A stretch of DNA of 64,000 nucleotides from Eledone cirrhosa. Its lineage: Eukaryota. The notes below the pieces were generated by a model. It saw nothing but the letters and a program-made list of their open reading frames with translations. It ran no database searches and was not told where the DNA came from. A program made the position numbers and the translations under genes. The DNA is taken from NCBI GenBank assembly GCA_964016885.1, contig OZ024741.1, positions 301,010,001-301,074,000 on the forward strand. Reading direction: 5' to 3'. This document shows positions 17,160 to 58,332 of this stretch, piece after piece (position 1 is the first letter of the stretch; every line of letters starts with the position of its first letter).

Positions 17160-17202
17160 ACGATGTACTAGTTTCAAGCTTACTAGCTATCGTCAGCACC
17201 GT
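17160..17202 (-). ncRNA. Hammerhead ribozyme, solo
   Basis: rc: ACGGTG-CTGACGA-T-AGCT AGTA AGCT-T-GAAAC-TA-GTA|CATCGT. 6-bp stem I, palindromic ACTAGT stem III. Confidence 0.85.
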
Positions 17203-19656: not shown

Positions 19657-19786
19657 GAAGTTCTATTTAAATTGTTGGGATACAGCAAGCAAAAATGTTT
19701 ATAACTGATATAAAGCACTCAACAAATTATTGGAGTAAAAATACGATATATTAACAAATGGAAACTATATTTATAAAACCATATTT

Positions 19787-19849
19787 ATTTCATTATACAT
19801 ATTTCAAGGACACCAAGTTAAATTATGGTGTGCTTTCATCAGATAAAAT
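19787..19849 (-). ncRNA. Hammerhead ribozyme (left arm copy)
   Basis: Reverse complement of 19988-20050. Confidence 0.8.
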
Positions 19850-19987
19850 ATAATATAGAGCAGTTTTATAAATAAATATTGACATACCCTTAAAGAATGC
19901 GACCATTTCTGTTGTGAGCTTCCAACAGAAATGGTGGCATTCTTTAAGGGTATGTCAATATTTATTTATAAAACTGCTCTATATTAT

Positions 19988-20050
19988 ATTTTATCTGATG
20001 AAAGCACACCATAATTTAACTTGGTGTCCTTGAAATATGTATAATGAAAT
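19988..20050 (+). ncRNA. Type I hammerhead ribozyme
   Basis: ATTTTAT-CTGATGA-AAGcACACC..GGTGTcCTT-GAAA-TATGTAT-A|ATGAAAT. 7-bp stem I with one G-U pair. Confidence 0.82.
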
Positions 20051-20115
20051 AAATATGGTTTTACAAATATAGTTTCCATTTGTTAATATATCGTATATAT
20101 ATATATATATATATA

Positions 20116-21412: not shown

Positions 21413-21495
21413 AAATTGAGGTTGGTAAGAGACAGAATACTTTTTTGTGAAAAAACATATAATTTTATAAGGTAAGGAAATAATAAAGGGTATAA

Positions 21496-21543
21496 AAAAT
21501 GACCGGTTTCGATGGGTCTGCAAAAGCCATCTTTTCAAATGTT
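21496..21543 (-). ncRNA. Hammerhead ribozyme, U3-A8 variant (inverted pLTR copy)
   Basis: Reverse complement of 24346-24393. Confidence 0.65.
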
Positions 21544-21953
21544 GATTAATATTAAGAAAAATTAATAATACGAAGAGTTAAAATTTGAGATTTGAAAATT
21601 CAAGTATAAAATTCATTGTGGGATTTCATAGTAGTTTTCATCTAGGTAGCAACAACAAGTTGACTGCTGTGTCCCTTTCTGGTAGTGAATGAGAAGTTAT
21701 TTGGGGTGTGGGTTATTTTATAAAGGTCACATTTAGCAATGGCCAACTGGCCAGCTGCTGGTCAGTGAGGGGGTGGAAGCAATATACATACAACTATGGA
21801 ATAACAGCAGTCCAATACTGGCTTAACACACACCCATGAGAAATACCGACACGCATCAACACAGATTTTATCACTGACGGACTCCGCTTTATCCTACAAA
21901 ATAACTACTTCACATTCAATGGTTCAACATACAGACAAGTATCAGGTACGGCA

Positions 21954-23144
21954 ATGGGCACGAAAGTAGCACCCACATATGCCAACCTAGTCATGGGATT
22001 CCATGAACAACAAATATACAGTCAATCCCTTCTCTTATTTGGAGACTCTTTCCACACACACCTCAAAGCCAATTGGAAAAGATATCTAGACGACTGCTTT
22101 ATCCTATGGCAAGAAGACATGAACTCACTTACTATGTTTAAAAACATGATAAACAACATAGATAATAACATACAATTCACAATGGAATCCAATCCTAAGG
22201 AATTAGACTTCTTGGATATTCTCATCTCTGTAATAGACGGGAAATTAGATACAGATATATTCTATAAACCCACAGATTCCAAGCAATACCTCTTTTTCAC
22301 ATCAAGTCACCCAAAACATACAAAACTTAACATTCCTTACAATTTGGCCAAACGTATATGTACCATAGTATCAGATCCACCTAAACGGGAGCAAAGACTA
22401 AAGGAACTAAAAGACACCCTTATCTTAAGAGCCTTTCCACTTGAAATAATCAACAATGGAATAGACAGGGCAAAACACCTAAATCCCCATCAACTTAACA
22501 ATCCAAAACAGAAAACCACACTCAACACCCTGCCATATGTATCCACTTTCAACCCCAGAAATACCGAAATGTTTGATCACCTACACAAAAACCTCCCCAT
22601 CCTACTTAAAGATGTAAAAATGAAGTCTATTCTTGAAACACACAAGATCCTTAAAAGTAAAAGACAACCCAAATCACATAAACGCATTCTCACTGGACCA
22701 AATATACTCAAACCAATCCTCAACCCTACAGTTACCAAATGTGGTAGAACAAACTGTGGAACGTGCCTCTACCTCACTGAAGGACAAACATTTACATTCA
22801 AAGATGGCCAAACATTTACAGTAAAAAACAATTTCACCTGCAACTCGGAGAACTTGATTTACGCAATAACTTGCGGTGGGTGCAAACACAACTACATAGG
22901 ACAGACGGGCACCTCATTACGCAAAAGAATGACCATCCACCGCCAACAAATCCGGGAAGCTAACACAAGAAAAATCCCCTTGAGCAGCCATATTGCGAAC
23001 TGCGCAGGAATGACACTACCCAACTTTAAAATCTTCCCCTTCTACAAGTGCCCAGATTCGTTCACACAGCAACAAAGAATAAACAAAGAAAATCTATTCC
23101 TTAACAAATTTAAACCAAAACTAAACGGGTTATTACCCCAATAG
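21954..23144 (+). CDS. PLE RT C-terminal half + GIY-YIG endonuclease
   Basis: GTAMGTKVAPTYANL, WKRYLDDCF, LDFLDI, DIFYKPTD, SSHP, KCGRTNCGTC linker, NLIYAITC...NYIGQT..LRKRMTIH. Confidence 0.93.
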   Translation: MGTKVAPTYANLVMGFHEQQIYSQSLLLFGDSFHTHLKANWKRYLDDCFILWQEDMNSLTMFKNMINNIDNNIQFTMESNPKELDFLDILISVIDGKLDTDIFYKPTDSKQYLFFTSSHPKHTKLNIPYNLAKRICTIVSDPPKREQRLKELKDTLILRAFPLEIINNGIDRAKHLNPHQLNNPKQKTTLNTLPYVSTFNPRNTEMFDHLHKNLPILLKDVKMKSILETHKILKSKRQPKSHKRILTGPNILKPILNPTVTKCGRTNCGTCLYLTEGQTFTFKDGQTFTVKNNFTCNSENLIYAITCGGCKHNYIGQTGTSLRKRMTIHRQQIREANTRKIPLSSHIANCAGMTLPNFKIFPFYKCPDSFTQQQRINKENLFLNKFKPKLNGLLPQ

Positions 23145-23479
23145 AATTGTCATAAAATATAAACACACATACGCACGGAATCACTACTATTAAAGACCAG
23201 AGACCAATTCTGTAGAATCAGGTTTATTCGTTGACAGACCATGCCTTTGTGTGACCAACACATCCATGTTAAACCCTGCACGTGCACACACATATATCTA
23301 TATATATATATGCGCACACAGAATTCACCACTGTCGGTTGCGGGGCCCAATCTACATGAAGAACTCAATGTGATCAGAATGACTTGTATTTTAATTTCAC
23401 TGTCCCAACTTCTTATATTATGGAAAAAATATATGTGAATGTATGTATATATATATATATTTGGAGGCCATTTCTCTGT

Positions 23480-23599
23480 GTGTCGGTGTATGTATGTGTA
23501 TATGTGTGTGTGTGTATGTGTGTGCATGTCGATGTATGTATTGTGTGTGCGTGTGTGTATGTGTGTATGTATGTGTGTATCTGGATGTATGCGTATGTG

Positions 23600-23634
<35 letters not shown>

Positions 23635-23767
23635 ATATATATATGTGTGTGTATGTCTATATATATGTGTGTGTGTGTGTATGTTTGTATGTGTGTATGT
23701 ATATATATGTGTGTGTGTGTATGTATGTGTGGGTGTGTGTGTATATATATATATATATATATGTGTG

Positions 23768-23800
<33 letters not shown>

Positions 23801-24030
23801 ATGTATGTGTGTATCTGGATGTATGTATGTATATATATGTGTGTGTGTGTATATATATATATATATGTGTGTGTATGTGTATATATGTGTGTGTGTGTGT
23901 GTACGTGTGTATGTATATGTATGTGTGTGTGTATGTATGTGTGTATATGTATATATATATATATATATATGTATATGTGGATGTATATGTATAGGTATGT
24001 ATGTGTGGATGAAGGTATGTGTGTATATAT
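23480..24030. repeat. Compound (TA)/(TG) microsatellite inside the PLE 3' UTR
   Basis: Direct observation. Source of the spurious ORFs 23384-24204. Confidence 0.95.
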
Positions 24031-24345
24031 AGGTGTAAGTGCACTAAATCCCTTTCTATCACGCTCCACTCTCCTACCCACCACAGGAAGATATATGTAT
24101 GTATATTGCTTCCACCCCCTCACTGACCAGCAGCTGGCCAGTTGGCCATTGCTAAATGTGACCTTTATAAAATAACCCACAACCCCAAATAACTTCTCAT
24201 TCACTACCAGAAAGGGACACAGCAGTCAACTTGTTGTTGCTACCTAGATGAAAACTACTATGAAATCCCACAATGAATTTTATACTTGAATTTTCAAATC
24301 TCAAATTTTAACTCTTCGTATTATTAATTTTTCTTAATATTAATC

Positions 24346-24393
24346 AACATTTGAAAAGATGGCTTTTGCAGACCCATCGAAACCGGTCATTTT
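24346..24393 (+). ncRNA. Hammerhead ribozyme, U3-A8 variant
   Basis: AAcAT-TTGAAAA-GATGG..CCATC-GAAAC-CG-GTC|ATtTT. Palindromic ACCGGT stem III. Stem I has one mismatch. Confidence 0.68.
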
Positions 24394-24695
24394 TTATACC
24401 CTTTATTATTTCCTTACCTTATAAAATTATATGTTTTTTCACAAAAAAGTATTCTGTCTCTTATATATTCCATGTGCCATTACCAACCTCAATTTTCTCT
24501 ATAACCTTCGTTTTGTGTAGAAAATTACACTTTTCATATGTATATATATATATATAAAAACAATCGTTTCCGCTGAACCGGTGCGTACAACTCACGTTCT
24601 ATGCAAATTAGTCTGCCCACTACTAATTTTCATAGAAAAAGCATATAACGATATGTGCTTTTACGATTCTCTAGAGAGGCCGGGGGATGGGTTAT

Positions 24696-24738
24696 ATATT
24701 GCTGATGAGATGTAATAACATCGAAACTAGTCCAATAT
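24696..24738 (+). ncRNA. Canonical minimal type I hammerhead ribozyme, solo
   Basis: ATATTG-CTGATGA-GATGT AATA ACATC-GAAAC-TA-GTC|CAATAT. All stems perfect, palindromic ACTAGT stem III. Confidence 0.93.
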
Positions 24739-25014: not shown

Positions 25015-25440
25015 TTTAAGTAAAAAGAAATCCAAACAAACTGGCGCGAAACCACCCAAACTTAACTCATATATGAAAAAACAACCTAAGCACCCCCGCT
25101 CCCCCCTTGTTTGAAGAACTTTGTAACGCGAACTGGCGCGAAATTTATTATACTTATTGACCAACCAATCAAAAACCTGGCGTTTCGAGCCACTTTTCTC
25201 CATATAAAACAAGTAACATTCAAAGACCAACCAGATGTGAGAAAAACCACAGACCCTCCATCTCAACTCTACTTTTGAAAAGCGGAACTGCGAAACCACT
25301 AAAGGAACAAGATAAATATATATATATATATTTTTTTAAATAATACTCCAGTTGCATTTTCGATCTTTTTTTCTTTATACTTTCACTCGTGTAGGACACC
25401 TCGGTTATTTTTCATTTTGTAAATAAACCTCACTTTCTAA
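25015..25440 (+). repeat. Solo pseudo-LTR of PLE family D with decayed U3-A8 HHR (~25268-25306)
   Basis: Matches 53115-53530 and 58465-58870. TTGAAAA GCGG AA CTGC GAAA CCACTA. TA-flanked. Confidence 0.8.
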
Positions 25441-25518: not shown

Positions 25519-27049
25519 GTGTGTGTGTGCGCGCGTTTGTGTGTGTGCGTTATATGTATACATGTATACATGTGAATATATATCGTAATATTTACAGAGA
25601 AACTATAAGTTGACAATATATTTTTCTTTCACAATATAGATAACTGTGATATGGGATATCTATGATTATCAATATCTTCTTTGTTTAGAGAAGCATATAT
25701 AAGGATATATAGATCTTCTTCCATGTTTCTTATCAAATATTCTGTGGGCTTTTCTTTTCTTCGAAGTTGAGTTAAAAAATATATTTATTTCCTATATAAC
25801 TGCCAATATTTTTCTGTATATTGCTTTCCTATACGAGTCGTCGTATCAATCATATAGAATCAGTTATGTTTGTATGTGCATACTAATGATCATCATGATG
25901 ATATATTACACTTTGATCATCTAGTCAGCATTAACGTGTGATGGATTACTTACAGCAAAATATATCAACATTAGCAACATACCATCAATCAATAGTTATC
26001 TCCCTTCTCAACTCAACCTTTGTGAGCGATTTAACAATAGATAGAGATGGCGGCCTTCCAACTGTATGTAAGACGAAATGCATCAAAATTTATTTTCTTT
26101 TTCTCTTGTGTTTATGTTAACTAATTTTTTAAAGGTTATTTCCTTCATAGTATTCATGAACATAAAATGTTTGTCAACTGTGAAGCAAAAAATATAAAAA
26201 ATATAAAATAAACTATCAAAAGAGAACTGATAAATATTAAAACCAAACATAGAAGCAAAATGTTGCAGCAAAAATATATCTAAAAATAATTATAGATGAA
26301 TACAATTTATAAATATACTTGGAAATGATTTTATTTCAGATGCTGTGACAAAAACATGATTTAATGTTTGATATGCTAAATCTAATAATATTCATGTTAC
26401 AACGAACACTCAATCAAGACAAAAAGAAAATTGCTCATTTTATAAAATGGTGCATGACAACTGAAGACAGAAATTAAAGAAATATACAAAACGAAGCCCA
26501 TCTAAAGCATAGTAACGCCATGATTCGATTGATAATATGATATACAACTTTAATCCGCCCACTTATCTACTTATACAGAAAATAATATGTTATAAACTGT
26601 CCTAAAACATTTTTCAATAGCTATCCTACTCCACTGTATTTATATCGTTTAACAGAAATGAAATATAAACCCCAAAAGTTCTGTTTTTACACTAAAGGAT
26701 CTCCCACCCCCTTCTGCAGTAGAGAAGAGTGCTAGATATTATAACCCGGAGTCTCGTGCACATAAAGAGAAACACCTGCATTTTTTTTTATGGTGAACTA
26801 TATTCCCATGATATTTCTTGAGGAAGTCGAATGATCGAATAGAATACTGGCAGTTGGTGCTTTGATTTATCGATCCTGAGAGGATAAGATGCATATTTGA
26901 TACATGTCGGAATTGAACTCAGAACAGGTGAGCCAGAATACTAGGCATTGTATCTGGGGCTTTAATGACTCTGTGAAATAATAACAAACACAAGAAATTG
27001 GGTATTCTTTTACAGATGTATTATCAATGTAAAACATGATAATATAATA

Positions 27050-27238
27050 ATTGTTTCTAGTTTTTGGCACAAGGCCACAATTATCCAGTGCATTACTGGT
27101 ACTTTATTTTATCGAGCTCGTAAGTATGAAAAGCAAATTTAACCTCGGCGGGATTTGAGCTCAGAATGTCAAGGGCCGTAACTCTCTGCGTCAAAGCATG
27201 GCGTCCGATCCTCTACCGATACTGCCAATGAACCGCCA
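27050..27238 (-). mobile_element. tRNA-derived SINE
   Basis: Full-length rc match to 7751-7940. Confidence 0.87.
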
Positions 27239-27904
27239 TGATAATATAATAATGTTGATTTTGAAATTTTGAAAGGTTAGTTCACTATTTTGATTAGAAT
27301 AATGGGTCACATTGACAGAGTATGTGACATCTACATTATTTTCTAGATTCCATAAAAAGAGATTTAACCATTTTGGTATTTAAAGGCTATTATTTTTGTT
27401 CTTGACTGGGGTTGAATACAACGATAGCAGTTTAGTTAAATCATTACAACCGAATTGATTGGAAATCGGAATGTAACTGATATTTGTAAGAATTCACCTT
27501 GTGTCTCCGGCAGTCAAAAGATTTTACAGACATAATGGTGTCGTTATAACCTTAACCCCAACCCTAACACTAACCCTAATGTGATATTGCTACGGTCCTC
27601 ACCATCGGTTAAAGCGCCAACATCTCTTCTAATTTTACGGATGACAAAATGAAAAAAGCGGAGAATTGATGCTTACGTTTCCATGTAAGAAGTAAATGAG
27701 ATAATGTTTCGTGCTATTAGTTGTGTGTGATTTAGTGAGAGTTAGGAGTGCGTGAGGAAGTTAAATTTTAGGTAGGATTTCCCTATTTGAAAGTATGAAT
27801 ACTAGGTCGATGAGAAAGTGATCAGGGAAGCTTTGTAAAGCATAATGATAGCATTGCAGCAATCTCAAACTCATAGTATAGCACAGGAAGGAGTTGTATA
27901 ATAA

Positions 27905-29295: not shown

Positions 29296-29397
29296 TCAGG
29301 TTATCAATAATGTAGTGATAATATATCGTTACGTTAGAGATGAACAGCGTACGTGCAGGTTTGCTCAACGAGTATAAATTATATTCCGGAGAAATGT

Positions 29398-31652
29398 AGA
29401 AAGGATGAATATAAAATGAAAGTGCTTTTGTTAAAAAAGGAATTTATTAGGTATTGACATATGTTTCTGTAACAGACCGAATACCTATGTATCGCTGCTT
29501 GCGTAATCATATAATGTTAGCAAGTATTCGATAGCAAATGTATAATCAGTTGTCACTTCTTCAGAGATTTTGGATAAACTGGATAAAATCAGAAAAATTG
29601 AAGTATTTATATTAGTAAAAGAGGAAGGAACAGAGGGGATAGAATATGACAGATGGTAAAATAATTTACTGCTAAACAAGTATATAATGGGTTTTTAATG
29701 AGAATACCATGAGTAAATCTAAATAAGAATTTTGGGAGTGCCGATTTTAATCTCTACTTGACCAACTGGACAGTGGACAGGGCTGGTCATTTGGTGCAGT
29801 AGTATTAATCATAAAGTGTCAATTGGGGAAGGGGGAGATTTCGATTGCTACTAAATAACATCAATGCTAGTAGTCAGCTGGTATTTCCACTAGATACTCA
29901 ATACAGATACGATTAAACCGTTCCATAAACTAAATGAGAACCTTAAATATGTAAATACGAGTTCTAACCATCCACTCTCTATAATTAAATCCATCCCTAG
30001 AAATGTTTCTCTTAGAATCTCCCGCCTATCGTCCAACCAACAAACCTTCAAAGAACATGCCGAGTATTATGATGATGCACTTAGGAAAGCCGGTCACCTA
30101 GATAATATAGAGTATATAGTCAATGATCACCAAAACACCCAAAATAAATCACATAGGAGTAGAAATAGCACAGAATCACCACCATACATACACTACCGCA
30201 ATAGACACAATAATAGTCGCACACCACCAAACAGAAGGCGATGTAAGGAGTATATCTGGTACAACCCAGTCTATAACAAATCTATTAAAACCAATCTACC
30301 CACAAAATTCTTTCGATTAGTTAGAAAACACTTTCCAACATCACATAAATATAATAAAATCTTAAACCCTAACACCATCCGACTTTCATATTCAACCGCC
30401 CCTAATATTGAACAACATATAAAAATGCTTAACGCAAAACGGTTGTATAAACGCCTTCCAACACATAACAATACACGTAAAACATTAGCTATAACATCAC
30501 AAAACAACAAACAACATCCTGTCCTGCATAAGCAACCTCATCAACCCATCCATGGCAATACAACAACGCAAAATTGTAATTGCAACTGTGTCCAACCAGG
30601 AATGTGTCCGTTGAACAATCAGTGTCTTGAACGCAACATCGTATACAAATGTACTATCGAATCGGATAGACAGAAGTGGTACTATGTGGGATCTACAGCC
30701 ACCTCCTTTAAATCACGCCTTTATAGACATCGTTATTCGATAAAACATGAAAACCAGCGTTATGTAACAACACTCGCAGACAAGGCTTGGCAGCTGCGTG
30801 AAAATAACCAACAATTTCACCTAAAATGGGATATAATAGCGAGTGCCCCCCCATATCCCAATGGACAGGAATTTTGTAAATTATGTAATGTAGAATTATT
30901 TTGTATTATGAAATCCAAAAACATTTTATTAAATAACAGAATAGAGCGATCGTTATACTGTAACCATCGCTTAAAATCTACATTTTCATATTATAAATAC
31001 TACCAGGATTGAACGCCTGTCTCTATCCCCGTTTGATTGTCAAAATAGATATGAACATTCTTTATTAGTCTTAATTCTATCAACTCTTCTATTATTTACC
31101 TTTTAATACAAACTGCTATAGATAAAATGAGATTTCTGATTTTTTGATTCAATTCCCTAGTGGAAATACCAGCTGACTACTAGCATTGATGTTATTTAGT
31201 AGCAATCGAAATCTCCCCCTTCCCCAATTGACACTTTATGATTAATACTACTGCACCAAATGACCAGCCCTGTCCACTGTCCAGTTGGTCAAGTAGAGAT
31301 TAAAATCGGCACTCCCAAAATTCTTATTTAGATTTACTCATGGTATTCTCATTAAAAACCCATTATATACTTGTTTAGCAGTAAATTATTTTACCATCTG
31401 TCATATTCTATCCCCTCTGTTCCTTCCTCTTTTACTAATATAAATACTTCAATTTTTCTGATTTTATCCAGTTTATCCAAAATCTCTGAAGAAGTGACAA
31501 CTGATTATACATTTGCTATCGAATACTTGCTAACATTATATGATTACGCAAGCAGCGATACATAGGTATTCGGTCTGTTACAGAAACATATGTCAATACC
31601 TAATAAATTCCTTTTTTAACAAAAGCACTTTCATTTTATATTCATCCTTTCT
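29398..31652 (+). mobile_element. Penelope-like element family C (Hydra-like), 5'-truncated, with ~495 bp inverted pseudo-LTR copies
   Basis: 29398-29893 is the rc of 31157-31652 (identical mirror ORFs 29485 and 31371). Between them: LKYVNTSSNHP, WYNP, CNCVQPGMCPL, NIVYKC...YYVGST. Confidence 0.92.
30425..31012 (+). CDS. PLE GIY-YIG endonuclease portion (RT thumb upstream from ~29894)
   Basis: CxCx5C linker, IVY..YVG motif, FKSRLYRH, LKWDII, CKLCNVE. Homologous to ORF 10194-11663. Confidence 0.88.
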   Translation: MLNAKRLYKRLPTHNNTRKTLAITSQNNKQHPVLHKQPHQPIHGNTTTQNCNCNCVQPGMCPLNNQCLERNIVYKCTIESDRQKWYYVGSTATSFKSRLYRHRYSIKHENQRYVTTLADKAWQLRENNQQFHLKWDIIASAPPYPNGQEFCKLCNVELFCIMKSKNILLNNRIERSLYCNHRLKSTFSYYKYYQD

Positions 31653-31671
31653 ATATATATATATATATATA

Positions 31672-32089
31672 ATGAGTGTCCAAGTCTCAGACCAATACTT
31701 GGACACTGACCAAGAAACTCACTCAGATGGTGGATGGGTGCTACACGAGAATGTTGAGGATGGCTCTGAACATTAATCAGTATACACTGAGGATGAAAAA
31801 CTCAGAGCTGTATGGGAGCATCCCAAAAGTTAGCTCAAAAGTGACACAGAGGAGACTGAGGTTAGCTGGACATGCTCACCGACATCCAGAGTTGACATTG
31901 CACTCAGTGCTCCTTTGGGAGCCCCTACATGGACACACTAGAAGTGAAGACCAAGGTTAACGTATGTTGATGCCCTAAGGACAGACACTGGTCTGTTGGA
32001 GCCGCAGGACATGGCAGCGATAATGAGGGACAGAGACCGCTGGAGAGAACTCGTCCATGGATCTCGGGAATTTTACCCGCCTTAGATAG
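31672..32089 (+). mobile_element. RTE-like LINE 3' fragment
   Basis: WTLTK...DGCYTRMLRMALNI...RRLRLAGHAHRHPE...LLWEP..G. Ends in TAGATAG. Confidence 0.8.
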
Positions 32090-32324
32090 TTATATAATGA
32101 GAGGTACGCAGATATATGTGCATACATACACATGTATATATACACATATATATTTTCCCAAATATGTGAATGTGTGTGTTGTCGACCTTAACCAGTGTTG
32201 CTCTATGATTATGAGAGATAAAACAATCGAAATAATTAAATTCACTCGATATCAGAGCTATGTAACAAATTATAAAGTAAGAAGAAGTAATAGATACAGA
32301 TATATACCTCTGTTTTCCTCAATG

Positions 32325-32415
32325 TCCCGACTGTACAGTTTCGCTGGTCAGTATGCAACAATTTTACATTATAGAGGTGTAACATTGTTATGAGGCATAC
32401 CAGCTTCTCAAGGGA
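32325..32415 (-). ncRNA. Hammerhead ribozyme, U3-A8 variant (left arm)
   Basis: Reverse complement of 32974-33064. Confidence 0.78.
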
Positions 32416-32973
32416 ACTCCTCAGGGAAAGAGCGCTTTCCAGACACGTTTGTAGCAAGCGAGAAAATCTTAAAAAGGTGGAGGGAGAGATTATCACGTGA
32501 TACACCAGTCAAGAAAGGTGACTAAATCCCTTGTAGCAGTGAAAAAATATCTCAGAAGGCGGAGGGAGAAGTTAATACAAAATACTGAGGTTACAGGGGG
32601 GGGGTAAAGTTGACTGAAAGTGGTTATAGTGTTTGCTTAAAAGCAGTTACTATACTTCTGTGGTTACTCGATGCACATATATGTGCGTACCTCTCATTAT
32701 TGTCTCAAACTCCCACACGGTCGAGTAACCACGGAAGTATAGTAACTGCTTTTAAGCAAACACTATAACCACTTTCAGTCAACTTTACCTCTCCACTGTA
32801 ACTTTGGTATCATGTATTAACTTCTCCCTCCGCCTTCTGAGATATTTTTCACTGCTACAAGGGATTAGTCCCCTTCTTGACTGGTGTATCATGTGATAAT
32901 CTCTCCCTCCACCTTTTTGAGATTTTCTCGCTTGCTACGAACGTGTCTGGAAAGCGCTCTTTCCCTGAGGAGT

Positions 32974-33064
32974 TCCCTTGAGAAGCTGGTATGCCTCATA
33001 ACAATGTTACACCTCTATAATGTAAAATTGTTGCATACTGACCAGCGAAACTGTACAGTCGGGA
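32974..33064 (+). ncRNA. Hammerhead ribozyme, U3-A8 variant with extended stem II
   Basis: TCCC-TTGAGAA-GCTGGT[...]ACCAGC-GAAAC-TGTACA-GTC|GGGA. Inner helices ATGC/GCAT, AACAAT/ATTGTT, TTACA/TGTAA. 10-nt palindrome ACTGTACAGT. Confidence 0.8.
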
Positions 33065-33122
33065 CATTGAGGAAAAATAGGTATATATCTGTGTCTATTA
33101 CTTCTTCTTACTTTATAATTTG

Positions 33123-33200
<78 letters not shown>

Positions 33201-33206
<6 letters not shown>

Positions 33207-33318
33207 GTTTGGAGTTGTAAGGCCAAGGCAATGCAGGTATGGATATATATATCTATATCCATATATATATATATATCCATACCTGCATTGCCTTGGCCTT
33301 ACAACTCCAAACGTTTAT
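33201..33318. repeat. Short perfect hairpin (~50 bp arms, TA-rich centre)
   Basis: ATAAACGTTTGGAGTTGTAAGGCCAAGGCAATGCAGGTATGGATATAT followed by its exact reverse complement. Confidence 0.9.
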
Positions 33319-34913
33319 ACCTCATTACAAAATGCTCCAAGTGATCTACAACTTCCTCCTATATATATATATATATATACACACACAAGATATGTCTATT
33401 CCAAACCGCAAATACAGAAATAGGTTTTATTCCCGTTAAAATAACGGTGCATATAAACGCTCGTTATGTTAATTCCCTAAAGGCAAGGCTAGGTTTACTG
33501 GAATGGAAAAATGCATACTATAATGCATACTATACTATGCTACGTCTCACATAACATCCTGAATATCATCATCCACATTTACGGTAAAAATATTGAAAAG
33601 GGGAACTTTTGAAATGCTTAAAAATGAAATCTTTCTCCATTGGCATGCATTAGGATGTTAATGAATCATCCAGGTAATATCACTGCACTGATAACACTTG
33701 CCCACCGTGAAATTGTTGCCATTATATGTGCACTAAATTGACCAAGCGTTCGTCTAACTTTTACAGGTGTTCCTAACAAGGGCCCCAATATTGTACTAAA
33801 TGATTATCACAGCGGGTGAGGGATGTGTGAAAACGTCTGGAATTTGGTAACTTTTGCTTGTCATCTATTTCATCTGAAACTGTACAACATTATAATGTAT
33901 TAATTTAGTGCTACAAATGTATATTTTCGTCCCATATATCTTTTAAACAGTTATATAGCATATTACCTGATATTAACATATTCCTGTTATTTGGAACATG
34001 CGCACATACCAGACTTGTAAATTATAATTGATAAATGCTGCTAAAGTTTAGGAATATCAGCAAACTAATATAAATTGTAATTTTGATTCATTTACTTGTC
34101 AAAGTACAGATTGTGTAGTATATGAACTTTTTTTCTTTCCTGAATAACACCAATTAAGTTGAATATCGATGTTATAAACCCAATGACTACTTATATGTAT
34201 ATGTATTAGATATGGAATACCTATATGTACTTGTATTAAGAATTCACAGACAAGTTAAGATATGTCGCTCAAGCAAGTTTGTAAAGATACAGCAATACTC
34301 TTTCAAAATGAATAGCTTATAATAAAGCATGCATCAATGACTTTCTTACGAAGTTAAATGACGTTCCATTGCAACTAAATATTCTGGCCAATATATATCC
34401 AAGAAATAAGAAACGGAAAGTGTGAAAATCAATACATATTCTTAGGTGAAAAATTGTTATTGATCTATTCAAGCAAATAATTTGTGCTTTGTAATTCTAA
34501 GAAATATGTCATATTTCTTTCAGTTTTAGTAAAGCATGGAACAACTAATCTACAAATTGCCCTAGAGCAGTAGTAAAGAAACGTTATCAGGTTTTGGTTC
34601 ATTTAGAAGAGAAAATACTAGATGTCTTCAGAGATTTTCTGAATAATGCAGAGAATATCAATCATACGATTAAAATGTGAATGCTTTATAGCCATAAGAA
34701 TTGAATATATCAAGGAAAGTGACAAGAATTTTCTCATAGGAATTATTCTAAATCGACTATATCACGCAAAATTTCTCTTTCTGTCTCTTTGCGTCTATAT
34801 GTATCATATACATATTATATATATATACATATATATATGCAGGAAGCCCTCATATATACATGAAGATGCACAGAAGATTTTGGAAATTGTTTAAAGTAAG
34901 TTCTCACCACTCG

Positions 34914-35919: not shown

Positions 35920-36085
35920 TAGAGGGTCGGGCGCCATGCTTTACAGCATAGTTACGTCCCTTTACGGTCTGAGTTCAAATCCCGTCGAGGTTAACTTTGC
36001 CTTTCATCCTTTCGGGGTCGATAAAATAAAGTACCAGTAATACACTGGGATAATTGCTGGCCCTGTGCCAAAAGTAGAAACAATT
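35920..36085 (+). mobile_element. tRNA-derived SINE, 5'-clipped
   Basis: GAGTTCAAATCCCG B-box and conserved body. Confidence 0.85.
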
Positions 36086-36844
36086 ATAATTTATATTGTA
36101 TTTGAAATGCTTTAGTGATGCAACTCATTCTGTTCAATTTCTCCTTTTCATCAATTCTGTTGAACTTTCTTTAAATACGTCATTCGTTAAATATTTTCTA
36201 TAATTTTGAAAGTATATGATAGGTAGTACTACTTTATATTTGTCTTTCTAGTACTGTTGAAGTACGTTGTTTTATCTAGTGTGATACCAAATGAATGTAG
36301 AGTATTTATTACCGTCATGTGCATTTGAGTGCATATTTCATCTCGATCGAAGTCTGTCTTGCGCTTTCCTTATATGTCTCGTACATCATCTAATATACTC
36401 GCAATAAGAACCATGTAAAGGTATTTGCATTCAGGTGAAGATGGCTCAGATTGTGTATATCAGTTACATGTGATACTTATGTATCTGAAACAGCTCTTCG
36501 AGGTCAATCATAGTGTAGAAATGAAGTCAAAGGAGTACCTAAAAATATTTCTAAAGTATGTTAACATTGTGGTTGGTATTTTGGAGTGAGTTGTTCAAAT
36601 GTAGTAATACACATTGGAAAACAAATTAACATGTGTGGATTCTCAGCATTATTCATTCTAAAAACATAGAACGCCTACAGCACACATGGGGGGATAGCTT
36701 GCGAGGGATGTACTCAACAACCCCCATTGGATTTAATTGTATAAAAAAACATTCCTGAATGGTGTTCATCATCGGCTAGAAACGACGAAAGAAAGTGATA
36801 TCAAATTAAAGAATTTAAAACTGTGTCAACAGTTCGATATTCGA

Positions 36845-37290: not shown

Positions 37291-37639
37291 ACCTGTATCT
37301 ACCTTCACAATGTGTGAGAGAATTTTTGTTATTATATATCCATATATCGTTGGTAATTTTTGATTTTTTGATATTCTTAAGGCTTGTGTAAATATATATA
37401 TTATACTACAGTAAATTGCAGCAATAAATCATTCCGAAAATTGAATATGATTGACTATGAAAATGAAAATTAAGAAAATAAGAACGGATTAGAAATTAAT
37501 GATTCACATTTTAAAATAAACACATTTAAACAGCATATTCACTTTCATTCTCAATAAAGTTATATTAAAAGCTTAATGGGAGATTAAAAAATAATTGATA
37601 AACACGCTCACAAATATTCACAAGCATATATATATAGTA

Positions 37640-37825
37640 ATTGTTGTTTCTACTTTTTGCACAAGGCCAGCAATTACCCAGTACAATACTGGTACTTTAT
37701 TTTATCGACCCCGTAAGGATGAAAGGCAAAGTCAACCTCGGCGGGATTTGAACTCGGATCGTAAAGGGACGTAACTATGCTGCAAAGCATGGCGTCCGAC
37801 TCTCTACCGATACCACCAATTCACT
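37640..37825 (-). mobile_element. tRNA-derived SINE
   Basis: rc match to 55009-55195. Confidence 0.87.
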
Positions 37826-39164: not shown

Positions 39165-39239
<75 letters not shown>

Positions 39240-39278
39240 ATATTAATAAATGGAAACTATATTTATAAAACCATAATT

Positions 39279-39341
39279 ATTTTATTATATATATTTCAAG
39301 GGCAACCAAGGCAAATTATGGTGCGTTTCATCAGATAAAAT
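39279..39341 (-). ncRNA. Hammerhead ribozyme, same family as 19988
   Basis: rc: ATTTTAT-CTGATGA-AACGCACC..GGTTGCCCTT-GAAA-TATATAT-A|ATAAAAT. Flanks 39237-39376 match 19745-19888. Confidence 0.75.
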
Positions 39342-39689
39342 ACAGATTTGTTTTATAAATAAATATTGACATACCCGGAGAAAAGACAGCCTTAACGGTT
39401 GAAGTTCGCTGGATAGCCACTGGACAAGGGAGAGGTTAGCAAAAGATATAAATGGACTGACTTAGTGACCCGGTCAAACGTCAACGACTATGGCACTGCT
39501 GGCTCCCCCCTTTCACACCAACAATAGAAAAAGCCCCAGCACCACCACCGACATAGCCAACAACAATAACAGGCAACTTCAACAAAAAGTATATTATATT
39601 ATTAATAATAATTTCATTCTTAAGCCAAGCAATGCTCATTAAGGAACCACTCATGATAATAACAATTTAAAAAACAACAAAAAAGAAAA

Positions 39690-42600
39690 CCCCGTGACAA
39701 AGAAATAGCAGGATGGCGGCCGGCGGGAAATAGCCCTGTCTCTAGGGGAGGACGACCCCTCTAGTCTTGGTTGACACTCGTCCTAGAAGTGGTAACACGA
39801 AATGATTACCCCTTGGCGGTTAAGGATAAAACGCGACAAAATAAAGTAAATGTCAAATGATAAAATCTCATACCGGATCGGCAGTCACCCGGGTCAAAAA
39901 GGGCCGCGTCCCTCAGAGAGGAACCAGACTGGGGTCGAAAAATTAGCTAATGGTTCAAACCTTCCCATCACTTCGGAGCTGGAGACCTCCCATAACCGGA
40001 ATACTCCTACTGTTGGCCCTCCATGCTCACCACCAAGAAATCCAAAGAAAAAGAGAGGAAAATGGTCAAGGGAAGACAATAAAGAAGTCCTTGAGGCTTT
40101 CTACATTGCCATGTACTACCCATCAAATAGATCGAATACAAAACAGACATATATCAACTGGAAAAAGAAACATACTCGAAAACAGAGGCTATATTGACAG
40201 TAACAAACTAGCCAATATACGAAGAAATATTATTAAAAAAAAGTTACCAACTGATATAGAAATTGATCAGATCAAGCTATTAGCACAAAGTCAGCGAAGG
40301 GAAAATGAAACATGTGTCAGTTAAAACGAGGTAAATTGTAACACTTCCAAATTAAAGAAAGGATCGAAAAAGTGGAGGGTGTGCATGCTCAAGATGAAAC
40401 TCAATATGAAAACAATGATATCATAAATGATAAAGATGAGAATGAACTTGCCAACTTGAAGGATGAAATTATGATCGAATGGATGAAAATGAAAGAATCT
40501 GACATGGAGGAACGAGACACTATCCCTAAGATCCAGAACTCCAAACAGAGACAAAAGATAATACACAAGACTAATATAATTCTCAAAAACATTATCATCA
40601 CAAACAAACTAAACATTACTGATTTAAATCATCTCTATTATGAATCGGCTAAAGTGATCACTCACTTATGCGCAGTGAAAATGAAAAAAACAAAGGAATT
40701 CCCACAAGAAATCTACTTGGCAAGAGAACATCAATCGCCAAATAAACCTTCTCCGATCTGACATAGAAATTTTAACAAACTACAAAGTAGGTGAACATGT
40801 TAAACAAACTAAACTTAGAAAATTGAAAAGAAAATACAGTATAAAATCAACAAGTGACATAGACATGCTGATAGAAATAATCAAGCAAAAATGTCGGCCA
40901 AAGTTGCTCGTTTAAGGCGCTTTGAAAAACGATCTAGATTCTATAAGAACAATAATATGTTCAAAAACAACCAAAGAAACTTCTACAGAAAAATTGGCAA
41001 GTCAACAATAACTGCTAAATCAATACTACCAAAGGAGGAGGTGCAAGAATTCTGGGAAAAGATCTGGGCCGAAGAAAAAGTTCATAATATACATGCCCCA
41101 TGGATAGACAGACAAATGAAAATGAAAGATTCAGCTCAACTTGAGGAACAAATATGGGAAAATATAACATTTGAACAGTTGCGTTTGGCTCTTAGAAAAA
41201 CCAACAAATGGAAATCCCCAGGAATGACAAAATACCAATTTTTTTTATAAATGCCTTCACAGAGTCTCATGAGCTGTTAGCCCAACTTTACAATGAAATA
41301 GTTAAGGAGCCAGAAAAGATACCATCATGGCTAGATAACGGCATTGCATTCCTGCTTCAGAAGAATAATGAGCCAAACAATCCCAAAAATTACAGACCGA
41401 TAACTTGCTTGCCGCAATGTATAAAATTTTAACATCAGTCCTAACTGAATATACATATGACCACCTGATAACAAATGATCTATTTCCCAATGAGCAGAAA
41501 GGGTGTAAACGAGGCTCATATGGCTGTAAGGATCAGCTTTTGGTTAACAAAATGATACTGGAAGATTGTCGTAATAGCCACAAAAATCTATCAATTGCTT
41601 GGATAGATTATAAAAAAGCATTCGATAGTTTGCCACACAGTTGGATTGAAAAATGTTTAGGGATTTTCGAAATATCCCCCGTTGTCAGGAGGATCTTGTC
41701 ATTCAGTATGAAGACATGGAAAACGACACTCCTTTTGAATAGGGAAAGAAAATCACTGGAAGCTGGAGAAGTTAATATTGATTGTGGAATTTTTCAGGGT
41801 GACTCTTTATCAACGCTTTTATTCTGCATCGCATTTACACCATTAAGTAAAATGCTAAATGAAACAAAACATGGATATAAATTCTATGACAAAACCATTA
41901 ATCACTTGTTCTACATGGATGACCTGTAACTATTTGCAAAAAATACTTGTTTCTACTTTAGGCAAAAGGCCAGCAATTACCCAGTGCATTACTGGTACTT
42001 TATTTTATCGAACCCGTAAGGATGAAAGGCAAAGTCAACATCGGCGGGATTTGAACTCAGATCGTAAAGGGACGTAACTATGCTGGAAAGCATGGCGTCT
42101 GACCCTCTACCGATACTTCCAATCCACGCACAATTGCAAGGGCTATCATCCACTGTGGATCAGTTCTGTGATGACATTAAAATGGAGTTTGGACTAGTTA
42201 AATGCGCCAAAGCAACGTTCACCAGAGGAAGCTGCTGAAAAGTTCAGACATTAATCTTGATCGGGGGAATGTGATAAGAGATCTTGATCAAGAGGAAACT
42301 TACAAATATCTAGGTGTTTGTGAAGGAGACGGAATCAAGCACTCGACAATGAGGGAAAGGATAAGGAAGGAATGTTACCGCAGAGTAAGAGCAATCTTAA
42401 GTACAGAATTGAATGCAAAGAAGAGGATCGATGTCATAAACGCGCTTGCCATACCAGTAGTAACCTACAGTTACAATGTCATCAACTGGTCAAGCACAGA
42501 GATCCGTAGGCTCGATACAAAAATTCGAAAACTCTTAACCATGCACAGAATGCATCACCCTAAGGCAGATATAGATAGAATATATCTCCCTAGGAAAGAA

Positions 42601-43968: not shown

Positions 43969-46172
43969 TAATAATTATTATTATTATTATTATTATTGGC
44001 GAACTACGTAGTAAATTGTATCATCTTGAGCTCCGCAAATGTTTGTTATTTTCAGTTATTTAAAATTGCAATTTATGGAAAATTTTTATTGTTAACTGTA
44101 TATAAGTGAACATACATTGATTTCTGAAAAGGACACTCAAAAATATTGGGGCCTTGGGCCCAAAATTTAAACTTTTTATAATTATCAAACAAAAAATGTA
44201 TTCTTTGAAAAATAATGGATGACTCAGATTCACTCATTCCTCACAATCCAACACCTCACACCGACACCACCATTGTAAATATTGCTACGTTTGCCAACAC
44301 TGGAATTGTAAGCAGTAGCAATATTTTAAATTTGTCTCAGGCAGACGTTCATTTCCCGCCATTACCAATGACTGCAGGTGTTAAAGCCGCCACCACCACC
44401 ACCACCACCACAGCGACAACAGAAACAATGAAAAAAATAAATTAACTCATGATATCGAAATGAATTCAACCAAAATGAACTCTTCCACACCGAACACCAC
44501 TGACGCCACCACCACCACAATTGAAACTAAAATTAACAATAGCAAAAATAACGATAATAACAACAGCAACAATGAAATTAAGAAAACTACCCTGAGTTTT
44601 GCCAGAGTAGCAAAAACGTGCGAAGCGATCCAGGTAACTCGGGAAGAATTAGACGAAGCCAAAGGAATAGTAAAGAAAGATGGGTACAGGGTCAGCCCCC
44701 CCCCCACCTAATAAAATGGAGCAACGTCGCCTATGCACCGTGTCTTATCGGACAATAAACATAAAATCGCGCCGAGTGGAACGGGCATCTGAGTCCCAAA
44801 TCCAAAAACCTTTTGGACATGTGTGGGCAAAAAACCCCACATCAGACGTGGGCAGAAGTATGGAACCGTGGACGTGTTCTTTGAAACCCACAGGAGGCCA
44901 GAGAACAATCCATGGCCCCATTAAGAAGTGACGATTTCACACTCATCCCAAGCTATTGTGGCCAGAGACTTGTGAAGATCAGGGTGACCCACGTTCCACC
45001 GGCCATCGAAATTACCTGGCTAATGGCTGCCGTCCTCGCCGGCATCGAGGCCAACACCAAAATAATAGAAATATCAAAAGAAAAGCAGGAGAACTGGTCC
45101 GGATATGGGATGGAGCTCCTGATCCAAGCGGACCATAAAAGCATTGAGGAGATTCCAGAGGTAATAGACCTCACTGACGGCAGCCACCTCACCGTAATCG
45201 TCGAGGGCAGAGACCTAGGTGTGTCGTTTGTGGTGAAGGAACCCGCCTAAGGGCTTTCTTCCCTCACGCTAAAAGGTTGAAGCCACCTCTCTTACCCACC
45301 CCAGTGACTCAACCATCAACACCACCAGCAGCAGAAATAGCAGCAACAACTGTAGCAGCAACAACAGAAGCAACTGTAACAGCAACAACCCCAGCAACAG
45401 TAGCAAAACCAACACCACCACCACCCAACGCCCCAGAACTAGCACCAGCGCCTACACCATCCACCACGCCACAACCAAAACCAACGCCCGTGGAGGATTT
45501 TCCACTCCCCGGCTTATCGCAACTGGAGACAGATTGTGACGACGAGGAGTGGGAAACGGTATCAGGAAAAAAGAAAAAAACAAGAAACCAAAAAAGAAAA
45601 AATTCTCTTCCTTCCCCCTCAAAAAACAAAATACAGAGGGAAACAAATAAATTATCGAACAAGAAAGTTAAGACAGATATGCCACCATCCACACCAGCAT
45701 CACCAACCCCATCACCACAAACACCAACACCATCACCATCATTAACCCCAACACCACCATCACCAACACCACAAAAGTCACCAAAAAGCTTAATAGAAAC
45801 AAACCCACAACAAACGCAAACAAAACAAAACAACCAAAACTATACACACTACACAGCATTAAATTTGAACAACAACCAATTATTACACTACATGCAACAC
45901 AACACCAGCATCACAGAAAAAGACTACACAACAACCCAAAAGTTCACACCACCTCCACACATACAAATCACTCGCATCACACAGAAAACGTACACGACAC
46001 TAAAACAAAAATTCCCCAAAGACATCGGAGACTTCCGGCAAACAATCTCCAGGATGATTTATAAGGTCATCCTTCCGGAGGAGGCCACAAGCAGTTAAAA
46101 GGATGGACAAACCATCCTTCCTACGAGAAGTAAGGTAAGTGGTCTTTCCCATCTTTTCCACTCCATTTCAAC

Positions 46173-47297
46173 ATGACCTCACTCAGAATAGGCAGCATAA
46201 ATGCGCGTGGCTTCGGGTCGTCATGGAAGCAGGGCCACCTGCTCAACGACCTCAGGTCACTAAACATAGATGTAGTGGCCATCAGCGAGACCAGAATCTC
46301 CGAAGCACGGGCCTTCGCACCGATTTTCGGCGGCGACGATGTGTACGCATCTCCCAGCCGTCCGGGATACGGGGGAGGAGTTGTTGTGCTTTTTCGGAGA
46401 GGTTTGGATCTCGCCATACAGGCCATCTTCCTGGACCCAGAAGGTAAGTTGGTGGTGATAGACGTGACCAGCGGAGACGGGCAAGCTTTCAGGCTAGTGG
46501 CCGTCTATGCCCCGACAGGAGCAGGGCGGCCTGATTTCTTCCGGCGTCTGGAGACCTTTCTTAGAACGTCCCGCTCTTTAGTGTTAGTGGGCGACTGGAA
46601 CGCGATCTTAGATGCACGCTGGGATTGTGTGGGATTAGCGGATAGGGGAGGAGGGTGCAAGAGCCTCACCAACCTGCTCAGGCGTTTTGAACTGTCTGAC
46701 AGGTACCGATTGGATTTCCCGAATGTGCCAATGTGGACTTGGACAAATCGCATAGGGTCAACCAGATCATATCTAGATAGAGTATTTTGTAGAGAAATAG
46801 ATAGGTCTAGCATAGGCTGTCCACAATTCAAGATAGTCAGCTACACGGACCACAAATTCGTGATCTGTGTGGTTGACTTAGATAGGCTTCATAGACGAGG
46901 ATCCGGCTACTGGAAGCTAAACGCGTCCTTACAAGCGCGCAAGGCCTACAGAGACCGGATTAGCGAACTAGTTAAGCGGGCGTTGAAGGGGGCCATCGTC
47001 AACAACAAGTGGTGGTTTGCTCTGAAAAGACCAATTAGAATAGAGTCCATTAGGTTTAGTAAGGCTTTAGCAATAGAGAAAAATAGAGCAGAGGGAGAAT
47101 TAGTTAGAATATTAGACGAGGGGCTTAGCAAAGCCATCGCGACCGACGTACTTGCGGCGAAATTGGCCCTTGACCAATTCTTCAATGCAAAGCACGAAGG
47201 CTGCGTTGTCAGAGCTAGGGTGCGTGCTCGCAGACACGAGGGAACGAAAGCCGTTCAATGGGCCCGAGTGGCGGAGGCGGTTTTTGGTTTTTGGTGA
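46173..47297 (+). pseudogene. Tx1/L1 ORF2 AP-endonuclease domain
   Basis: SINARG, ISETR, VYAP, VGDWNA, TWTN..SYLDRVF, TDHK, GYWKLNAS. Confidence 0.92.
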
Positions 47298-47401
47298 ACC
47301 ACGACGGTTTTTGGTGAACCACGACGGGCGCATGCTACTCGATCCCGGGAAAATGCGTGTAGCTTTTCAGCGACACTTCGCACAGCGGCCCGGATCGAGG
47401 G

Positions 47402-49579
47402 ATGGACTTTAGTGTCTACCTCGACGGACTGCCGCGGCTCTCGGCCACTGAGGCGGAATGTTGCGAAAAGCCGATAACAGCCGCTGAAGTACGGCAGGCA
47501 ATGACTGGCTGCACAAGGGGTAAATCGCCTGGTTTGGATGGTCTGGCCTATGAACTTTACGTACAGATGCCACACTTGTTCGGAAGCCACTTGGCGGACG
47601 TCTACTGCAACTGGCAACAGAACGGGAGAATTCCCAGCGCTGTGAGCCGAGGAATTGTGGCGCTGCTGAGAAAGGATCCGAACAAGGGGGGTAACATAGA
47701 TAATTTTAGGCCCATAACTCTGCTACACACGTTCAAGATTTTGGCCAATGATTTTGGCCAACAGAGTTCAAGATTTTGGCCAATGTGCTAGCAAAGAGGT
47801 TGGCGCTTGTCGTTTGTGGTCTGGTGGGAGAGGCGCAGACATGCGCCATTCCCTACAGATCCATCCACGACAAGCTCCACCTCATGCGATACATCGTAGA
47901 GAAGGTAGCTAGCGAACCTGTCACGGGTGGGTCCTTGATCAATTTAGATCAGTCGAAAGCTTTCGATAGGGTCGACCATCGTTACCTAGCGGCAGTCCTG
48001 AGGGCGGCTGGCTTTGGGCCCGTCTTCAGAGGCTGGATCGCTGCCAGGCACAGCGAGATGTGCTCTGTGGTGAGAGTGAACGGTCACCTTTCGGAACCGT
48101 TCAACATCATGCGCTCAGTCCGCCAAGGATGTCCACTCTCGTCCCTATTGTACGTATTGACTCTCGAGCCATTACTGCACAAACTGGAGACGTTGAGGGG
48201 GTCCCGCGCGAACTAGCATGCGGAAGATCCGCGTCAGCATATGCGCCAAACACATCGAGGCGATCGACACTACACTAAGAGAATACGAAGCGGTGACAGG
48301 AGCAATGATCAACCAGGAAAAGTCAGTGGGCCTGAAGCTCGGCACCTGGAGAGGCAGGTCCATGCCGTCCAACAGCGTCGTCAGGCGCTGGACGGACGGA
48401 CCGGTTAAATTGCTAGGGGTCTGTTTCGGTCCGGACATCCAGACGGACAAAAACTGGGCTGAGGTGACGAGCAGGGTGGCTTCTCTCACCCAGAAATGGG
48501 CGGAGAGGAGGCTATCCCTGAAAGGTCGAGTGGAGTTGGCTGACGCGTACATCGCGTCCGTCATCTACTACCGCCTGACCGTCGTACCTTGTCCTAGGCC
48601 CCGCCTTACTGAGCTGGAGCGTTTGCTCTTTCGCTTTTTGTGGAAGTGACGCGCTCCGATGGTCAGGCGGTCCATCTGCTGTCAACACCCGCTACGTGGA
48701 GGACTGGGCATGCCGTGGCTGATGATGCGCAGACACGCGCTCAGGCTACGACATCTCCACCTCTTCCTCGACGGTGCTCAGTTGTGGTCGCCGTTTGCTA
48801 GACGCCTCTTTCCCCAGCTCGTCTCCTTGACGGAGCTGCAGTCCTGGGTCAAGCGAAGACCGAGAGGGAGCGCTTGAAGACTGGAATGTCTTCAGGCGCT
48901 CACAGACCTCGACCAATCGGGCAATGTGATCGGTGGAAACTCCACCTTGGCGTTCTATAGAGGATTAGTGGAGAGGAAGAGCGACGACGTACTTGGGGAA
49001 ACCCTAGGTGTCGACGAAAATCAACTAGCCAATGTCATCGTGAGAACTTTCTGGCCGTGGTCTATGGTCAACTTCCAGAAATCCCTGGCCTGGCAATGCT
49101 ACCGAGGAGATTTGCCAGTTCGGGATAAACTCTACAGGCATAGAGGTGCCGTCAGCCGGGCATGTCCGAGATGCTCGCAGGGCGACGAAACCGTCCTGCA
49201 CGCATTCGTCCAGTGTCCGAGCATTGCTGACTTGTGGGTTTATGTCGAACACCTGCTGTCGCGTGTAGGACGGATCCAGCTATCAGCTGAGTCCATCGTG
49301 AGGATTGCCCTGCCTTCTTCCTTTAGCCGGGAAGAGTAGGTAATATGTATCTGTCTGGTGGCCATGGCGAAAGAGTTAGTATGGTGGACATGTTTGAAAG
49401 GGCTGAAGACGAGCACTTACCTCTTCGGTGATGCCCTGATTAACCTTTTCAAATTTCATTTGAAAAGGAAAATCAGGGTAAAGAGGGAAGTGCTCTCTTC
49501 CCAGCATTTTGTTGAAAGATGGGTGAGAAAGGCAAGAATGGCCCGAGTGAATGGGCCTACTCTGAGTATGTGTCTGTAA
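47402..49579 (+). pseudogene. Tx1/L1 ORF2 RT and C-terminal Zn motif, fragmented
   Basis: KSPGLDGL, NFRPITLL, LDQSKAFDRVDH, SVRQGCPLS, GGLGMP, CPRC...ETVLHAFVQC. Confidence 0.9.
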
Positions 49580-49879
49580 ATTAAAGGTGGAAAACTGAGA
49601 GTGGGCACTTGCCCTGGTGGTCAGGGTCACTGTGGCTTTTTAATGGGCTTTCTCCACGAATGTCCCTCGGAAGTCTCCCCCTTATTGGGGAATTTTTTCA
49701 TTGTTCTATTATTACATCCTTTTTTTTGTTGTTTTTTTACAGGCAGAAATGCCCTTTTGTACCGTCCAGTATTGTCATGTACTGTCCTTAATGTCTACTT
49801 TGTGTAAACCCTTGAGGTTAATAAAGAAAGCATTATTATTATTATTATTATTACTATTATTATTATTATTATCTAATGA

Positions 49880-51855: not shown

Positions 51856-51896
<41 letters not shown>

Positions 51897-51902
<6 letters not shown>

Positions 51903-55195: not shown

Positions 55196-55196
55196 T

Positions 55197-55242
<46 letters not shown>

Positions 55243-58297: not shown

Positions 58298-58332
<35 letters not shown>

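Follow-up and report, generated by a model that had tools for sequence, protein, structure and literature searches.

Published accounts present the hammerhead ribozymes of Penelope-like elements (PLEs) as minimal, slow motifs whose role is not settled. In the pLTR motifs listed in PMC4209133 they are of type I, lie ~60 nt from the element end, contain the G10.1-C11.1 pair, and carry a palindromic helix III, which reaches 10 nt in four of them (Aedes 1–3 and Saccoglossus 2). Three of the 56 listed motifs have a U3-A8 core, motif pairs on opposite strands lie 100–700 bp apart, and about 1,300 U3-A8 matches come from Schistosoma PLE derivatives (PMC4209133); this core is a natural and active form (PMC3088659). 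The Hydra-clade PLEs of PMC8557442 insert into (TA)n, and six of their motifs have a 10-nt helix III. PLEs typically insert into (TA)n and leave inverted 5'-truncated copies, with a palindrome at the inverted joint and a tail at one end (PMC8557442, PMC3846280); the tail is of 30–40 bp and found on one side only (PMC8557442). Non-LTR retrozymes are protein-less type I units derived from PLE pLTRs and arranged in head-to-tail tandem (PMC7229834; bioRxiv 10.64898/2026.07.22.740005). In the pseudoknot hammerheads, of types I, II, and III, a tail-to-loop helix of 4–6 bp, established by mutation and rescue, replaces the loop-loop contacts (PMC3088659); this tail-to-loop form occurs in bacteria and at the human C10 locus (PMC3088659, PMC10085705).

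The locus presented here lies in a stretch of 64,000 nucleotides of Eledone cirrhosa DNA (contig OZ024741.1, positions 301,010,001–301,074,000; hereafter the window) and shares all the PMC4209133 characters given above, including the U3-A8 core, the 10-nt palindromic helix III, and the spacing of the opposite-strand pair. It differs from the 56 listed motifs in its stem II, which comprises 62 nt and three helices at the locus and about 23 nt or less (by eye) in the motifs, and in the lack of the extra nucleotide that they have between A9 and G10.1. With the Hydra-clade PLEs it has in common the target and the length of helix III, and one of their motifs also has its TCCC/GGGA stem I, whereas the Hydra motifs listed in PMC8557442 have a C3-G8 core and a short stem II. 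The maximum length of stem II in that source is 53 nt (PLE-X1 from Selaginella, flagged as non-canonical), as against 62 nt at the locus and 90 nt in a neighboring motif. No ORF links the family to the Hydra clade (Hydra-type ORFs are found elsewhere in the window), two short arm motifs did not turn up in an exact text search, a weak test, of the PLE consensus supplement in PMC8557442, and a Hydra-like clade for the family is a guess. As in the retrozymes, a protein-less type I unit is derived from a PLE pLTR, but it is arranged head to head; a non-LTR retrozyme was rejected, as the arms are inverted and no tandem array is present at the locus. The candidate pseudoknot on the 5' side would have the same role as the tail-to-loop helix of PMC3088659, but it involves an internal loop of stem II, and no covariation was seen. 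Since stem I-stem II pseudoknots are published, any novelty would lie not in the mechanism but in its occurrence in an animal PLE with a long stem II.

Neither the fold-back nor the palindromic stem III is unusual for a PLE, and inverted ends, the U3-A8 core, the 10-nt palindromic helix III, and pseudoknots have all been published. The sole departure from an expected PLE end is the long stem II, of 62 and 90 nt in two families of the window. As a whole, the locus is probably a dead, ORF-less PLE insertion made of two 5'-truncated 3' ends placed head to head in a microsatellite, with a hammerhead acting as a dimer and a rod-like stem II.

Anatomy of the locus and its family

The window consists of AT-rich, animal-type DNA with many TA microsatellites and retroelement debris. 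SINE-like repeats of 150–220 nt are abundant (7734–7956, 27036–27261, 35920–36097, 37634–37824, 41939–42127, 49876–50032, and 55008–55208), and LINE fragments occur at 12446–15308, 41372–41929, and 46134–49339 (an RT with a PHD-finger ORF, an RT, and endonuclease-RT-zinc-finger pieces). The features of the locus are as follows.

32094–32123, plus strand: putative host-flank 30-mer, likely template of the central insert (29/30 against 32671–32700)
32180–32264, minus strand: one-sided sequence past the left arm without a right-arm counterpart, candidate PLE tail (boundary approximate)
32265–32671, minus strand: left arm, 5'-truncated inverted copy of the element 3' end (pLTR), 388/407 against the right arm
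32325–32415, minus strand: mirror hammerhead with the same letters as the plus-strand copy (descriptor scan)
32671–32700, plus strand: central insert, the flank 32094–32123 inverted; one letter is common to insert and arm at the left joint
32701–32720, plus strand: 20 nt of element sequence heading the right arm and lacking in the left one (5' truncation is unequal)
32721–33123, plus strand: right arm, sense element 3' end abutting (TA)40 (alignment; multi-copy in four public runs)
32807–32938, plus strand: two imperfect direct repeats 79 nt apart (80% identity)
32949–32964, plus strand: predicted 6-bp hairpin directly 5' of the hammerhead (constrained folds)
32966–32972, plus strand: TGAGG(A/T)G, candidate pseudoknot strand or part of a lengthened stem I that contains a tandem G.A loop (reads, folds)
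32974–33064, plus strand: type I hammerhead, with stem I at 32974–77/33061–64, core at 32978–84, and GAAA at 33047–50 (descriptor scans)
32985–33046, plus strand: stem II, a 62-nt rod with CTCA in an internal loop (folding, shuffles)
33050–33059, plus strand: stem III palindrome ACTGTACAGT, with 3 bp closing a GUAC loop in the monomer and 10 bp in the dimer
33068–33072, plus strand: 3' TGAGG, mostly TGAAG in relatives, indel-prone (reads)
33124–33203, no strand: (TA)40 insertion target (repeat scan)

The inverted arms of ~405 bp reported in the initial annotation were recovered by alignment of 32265–32671 with 32721–33123, which gives 407 columns with 388 matches, 15 mismatches, and 4 gaps (95%); blastn stretches the match outward to 32259/33129. 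Eight of the 15 mismatches fall within 32790–32812, where five of the left-arm letters are listed family letters (two templates, conversion, or a G-run error are alternatives for this cluster), and the two arms show no difference within 32940–33075. The short inverted pair of the same annotation, 32094–32123 and 32671–32700, is likewise present, with 29 of 30 positions complementary (E 1e-7, blastn within the window). Its outer copy, which includes a near-perfect 14-nt palindrome, is situated ~60–140 nt outside the left junction, between a TA/CA-rich tract and the end of another repeat (31926–32089, matching 3016–3180), and is presumably of host origin. Next to the (TA)40 tract on the other side, 33200–33319 forms a separate near-perfect hairpin of 120 nt with a TA-rich loop and sub-threshold Rfam miRNA matches.

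No second copy of the family was found within the window by blastn, but four of six listed public runs, none of the six being RNA, could be matched to the right arm at 80% likeness. Contig records matching the arm number 364 (X1) and 341 (X2), and reads matching it across all identity bands number 5680 and 6383. These reads span 32700–32729, with listed letter differences, and the number of the 32807–32938 repeat units differs within the family (read joints skip 64–69 nt). Five opposite-strand joints at other truncation points are present in the public runs. The many read matches together with these joints indicate that the locus is one copy of an interspersed multi-copy family that repeatedly makes fold-backs.

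The locus represents the 3' end (pLTR) of a multi-copy PLE in head-to-head form. The identification is made from anatomy, because no ORF is attached to the family and the arm is unlike the five other pLTRs of the window (local alignments with them do not exceed shuffles). The anatomy comprises an inverted 5'-truncated copy, a hammerhead near the 3' end, and a microsatellite target, as in a pLTR. The five other hammerhead-bearing inverted ends are located at 5543–5974, 19741–20096, 21426–24463, 29394–31656, and 57413–58796. The third contains a 5'-truncated ORF with RT and GIY-YIG Pfam matches and a CX2-5CxxC linker, and the fourth a 5'-truncated ORF with the Hydra-clade CxCX5C, CxxC, and CxH motifs; two ORFs of the window in all, neither belonging to the family of the locus, have these motifs (a CxCX5C linker, with CxxC and CxH flanking the endonuclease E/N).

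The remaining PLE material of the window is varied. The fragment at 29394–31656 is a young Hydra-type PLE with inverted ends, its arms being 99.8% identical. A second Hydra-type family has copies at 9862–12000 and 61833–63926 (89% identical) and a 540-aa ORF without a Pfam match, 35% identical to a 372-aa Hydra-type ORF; descriptor scans found no hammerhead at its ends. Neptune-like fragments lie at 21426–24463, 51896–53527, 57413–58870, and 25065–25439. U3-A8 hammerheads with a 6-nt palindrome occur at 21501–21538, 24351–24388, 57480–57509, and 58702–58731, and this core is common to three hammerhead families in the window. Canonical-core pLTR remnants with a stem II of 14–30 nt are found at 5543–5974, 19741–20096, 39233–39376, 24696–24738, 6581–6625, and 17166–17196.

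The hammerhead, its long stem II, and a candidate pseudoknot

The hammerhead is built on the core TTGAGAA (32978–84), a compensated U3-A8 form that the initial annotation did not report. The core with its 3-8 pair, the GAAA, and an NUH site (GUC, with cleavage predicted after C33060) follow one another in type I order, and three helices of 4 bp (stem I), 6 bp or more, and 3 bp can form around the core. All 10 changes listed within 32955–33075 (40 of the 234 variant rows) fall outside the 39 positions of the core and the adjoining stem parts (P 0.017). Rfam returned no hammerhead at the locus at gathering scores, nor when the E limit was relaxed to 10 (52 matches), and since none of the other hammerhead motifs of the window reaches the gathering score either, this miss reflects the reach of the models. 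The pattern of the core with the proximal part of stem II was matched at no fewer than 119 metagenome loci and at 103 viral loci; among these 222, none is homologous to the arm (best blastn match 19 nt) and none makes a convincing hammerhead. An open frame starting from ATG 33004 was dismissed by eye, as family indels at 33066–33072 break it.

The 62-nt multi-helix stem II of the initial annotation is real. In the present copy it folds at -16.1 kcal/mol, a value equalled by just one of 200 dinucleotide shuffles (z between -2.8 and -3.0). Within 32955–33075, more than half of the depth in all four runs differs from the present copy at 32991, 32999, 33012, 33019, 33038, and 33071. The family letters at the first four of these positions add one stem II pair each, and those at 32993 and 33038 together add the pairs 32993-33039 and 32994-33038. 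With family-majority letters, combined without haplotypes from 40 of the 234 variant rows, the stem reaches -24.7 kcal/mol, owing to the four single-letter pairs, and none of 200 shuffles is as good. The present copy is, by this measure, a weakened version of a better rod; the pairing is kept in the family, where selection maintains stem II as a long rod. Its role would most likely be that of a structural or protein-binding platform, not of a pseudoknot partner.

A hammerhead-like motif with a comparable rod is present in the Hydra-type neighbor (31486–31594), where stem II is 90 nt long (z -3.75) and stem I has just 1 bp. By eye, the 8 nt past its cleavage site are complementary to a stretch within stem II. 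The motif may be inactive, or it may represent a switchable or a permuted form. No paper on long stem II in retrotransposon hammerheads was found in the open-text listings searched. The spacers used in published PLE searches are short (7–17 nt, with half cores noted at 35–50 nt), so motifs with a long stem II may be undercounted.

According to the initial annotation, the stem II bulge CCTCA (32994–98) can pair with TGAGG on either side of stem I (32966–70 and 33068–72), forming a pseudoknot in place of the usual loop-loop contact. All three pentamers lie at these positions and are complementary. In 5000 trials with shuffled 20-nt flanks, a match of at least 5 bp to single-stranded stem II arose in 6% of cases for the 5' flank, 33% for the 3' flank, 37% for either, and 1.8% for both; when pairing anywhere along stem II was counted, the shares were 24, 60, 69, and 15%, respectively. 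The 5-bp match is not clearly beyond chance.

The best surviving form of this proposal, which we consider tentative and somewhat unlikely, is that the 5' tail (32966–32972) pairs over 5–7 bp with the stem II loop (32992–32998), docking the two stems and speeding up cleavage at low Mg2+. Such a tail-to-loop helix of at least 4 bp can form, with 5 bp here and 7 bp with family letters, and pseudoknots are known in all three hammerhead types. CTCA is unpaired (0.88–1.0) in all the constrained folds, and CCTCA is kept in one X2 contig end. Neither 5-mer is altered among the changes listed (40 of the 234 variant rows), but zero listed changes in 10 nt has a P of 0.25, and no two-sided change within the 5 bp is listed. 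The changes 32971 A>T and 32993 G>A would extend the helix to 7 bp, a length reached in 0.4% of 5000 shuffles of a 13-nt flank, as judged post hoc and with linkage presumed. The two letters do not track each other, however, 32971T and 32993A making up 30% and 58% of X1 and 49% and 7% of X2, and both have other explanations: 32993A and 33038G can be placed equally in a stem II helix of 4 bp, to which C32994 is lost, and stem I is lengthened by 32971T. In the folds, 32971T and 33071A are compatible with a longer stem I whose two GA steps make up a tandem G.A loop, and this would explain the similar pentamers on both flanks.

RAD reads, which by their length probably carry both 32971T and 32993A, have a different 3' flank after 33065, in which 32971T has no stem I partner, so the change at 32971 is not explained there by stem I, and together with the one at 32993 it yields the 7-bp pseudoknot helix. 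These reads represent 6–18 read starts from few loci, and their 5' loose-end consensus could form a hairpin over TGA (by eye). With no pseudoknot penalty applied, four of the five variants folded show a net helix gain of -6 to -7 kcal/mol and the remaining one of -3.0 kcal/mol; for the RAD-type letters without the 3' flank it is about -7.8 kcal/mol. Pseudoknot initiation usually costs 7–10 kcal/mol. The gain (-3 to -8 kcal/mol) is cancelled by a cost of the same size. Moreover, the 90-nt neighbor lacks such flank pairing, and complementarity between flank and stem II was unremarkable in all six further hammerhead motifs of the window that were examined for it (p 0.19–1.0). The rod as a structural or protein-binding platform remains the preferred reading.

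Stem III and the mode of cleavage

The 10-nt palindrome at 33050–59, described in the initial annotation, was confirmed, but not the statement that it sets the locus apart from PLE hammerheads, for which palindromes of this length are published. The proposal that stem III is long enough for a monomer is likewise not supported: the monomer stem has 3 bp. As a hairpin it folds at +1.5 kcal/mol as against -13.4 kcal/mol for the duplex, it contributes just 0.7 kcal/mol in context, and the whole double hammerhead lies 16.4 kcal/mol below two monomers, in energy models that leave out tertiary contacts and concentration. On these calculations stem III is better read as a dimerization palindrome than as a monomer stem.

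A mainly monomeric ribozyme, with stem III closing 3 bp over a tetraloop, is unlikely. In a 131-nt context the constrained active fold is only 1.0 kcal/mol less stable than the minimum, and fungal PLE type I hammerheads with a long helix III cleave as monomers; against this, the active monomer accounts for 2.4% of the ensemble, or 0.35% with 10 more 5' nucleotides, and the loop is itself palindromic, a signature of the dimer form. In the dimeric reading, the hammerhead of the parent element would most likely cut pLTR-containing transcripts as a dimer held by the 10-nt palindrome, possibly aided by the element's protein. The hammerhead of a PLE studied in vitro required the protein (PMC11167929). 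In a read-through RNA of the present locus one arm would pair with the other, and the RNA would probably not cleave; as a transcript of both arms would be a 400-bp duplex, this copy is probably inert.

Origin of the fold-back and wider meaning

A PLE protein has been observed in vitro to cleave and extend both target strands, and two initiation sites account for the tail (PMC11167929). At the present locus, both target strands may likewise have been nicked, each priming reverse transcription from the 3' region of the RNA. Two cDNAs primed on opposite strands, with their ends then fused, would give head-to-head arms with unequal truncation, which explains the arms without a template switch. One of the cDNAs would have copied 30 nt of the nearby flank before the ends were joined, the copier being either the RT or a repair polymerase. 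Of the two or more template switches deduced in the initial annotation, two extra joints are thus still needed for the central 30 nt, and none for the arms. A second flank copy was absent from all four other fold-back regions searched in the window, so the central insert is not routine.

It is very unlikely that the central 30-mer is element sequence, with 32094–32123 as a third element fragment, or that the fold-back is an assembly artefact. The family reads were examined from 32700 onward, which leaves room for the former, but such an arrangement would break colinearity with the left arm. An artefact is at odds with the 19 of 407 columns that differ between the arms, with the unequal truncation, and with the recurrence of like fold-backs at the PLE ends of the window and in further family copies. 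Joined opposite-strand cDNAs with a copied piece of flank are retained as the probable route.

Two readings of the hammerhead and its flanks can be dealt with briefly. A canonical core CTGAGGA at 32965–32971 with a 75-nt stem II is hardly credible; it fits the standard descriptor, but its A9 position (32971) is T in 30–91% of the family depth, and its stem II is closed by only 3 bp as against 6 in the U3-A8 register. The 3' TGAGG (33068–72) is barely tenable as the pseudoknot partner, since the 5-bp match of the present copy is expected by chance at 33–60% and most relatives have TGAAG instead (33071 G>A, at 78% of the X1 depth with 32 contigs, 82% of X2 with 27 contigs, 52% of X4, and 59% of X5), with indels at 33066–33072 and no compensating change at 32995 among the changes listed. 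The conservation expected for CCTCA/TGAGG thus breaks down on the 3' side; on the 5' side, no two-sided change is listed and the changes listed leave both strands unaltered.

A broader possibility, also unlikely in our estimate, is that some PLE lineages here have expanded hammerheads in which a stem II of 62–90 nt, missed by standard descriptors and Rfam, is combined with a 5' pseudoknot of 5–7 bp and with fast, protein-free cleavage. The 5' pseudoknot, if true, would make this a fast PLE ribozyme, and the broader possibility would suggest that PLE families scored as hammerhead-less or half-core would carry such long forms. The 62-nt family and its 90-nt neighbor point to selection on more than the minimal core.
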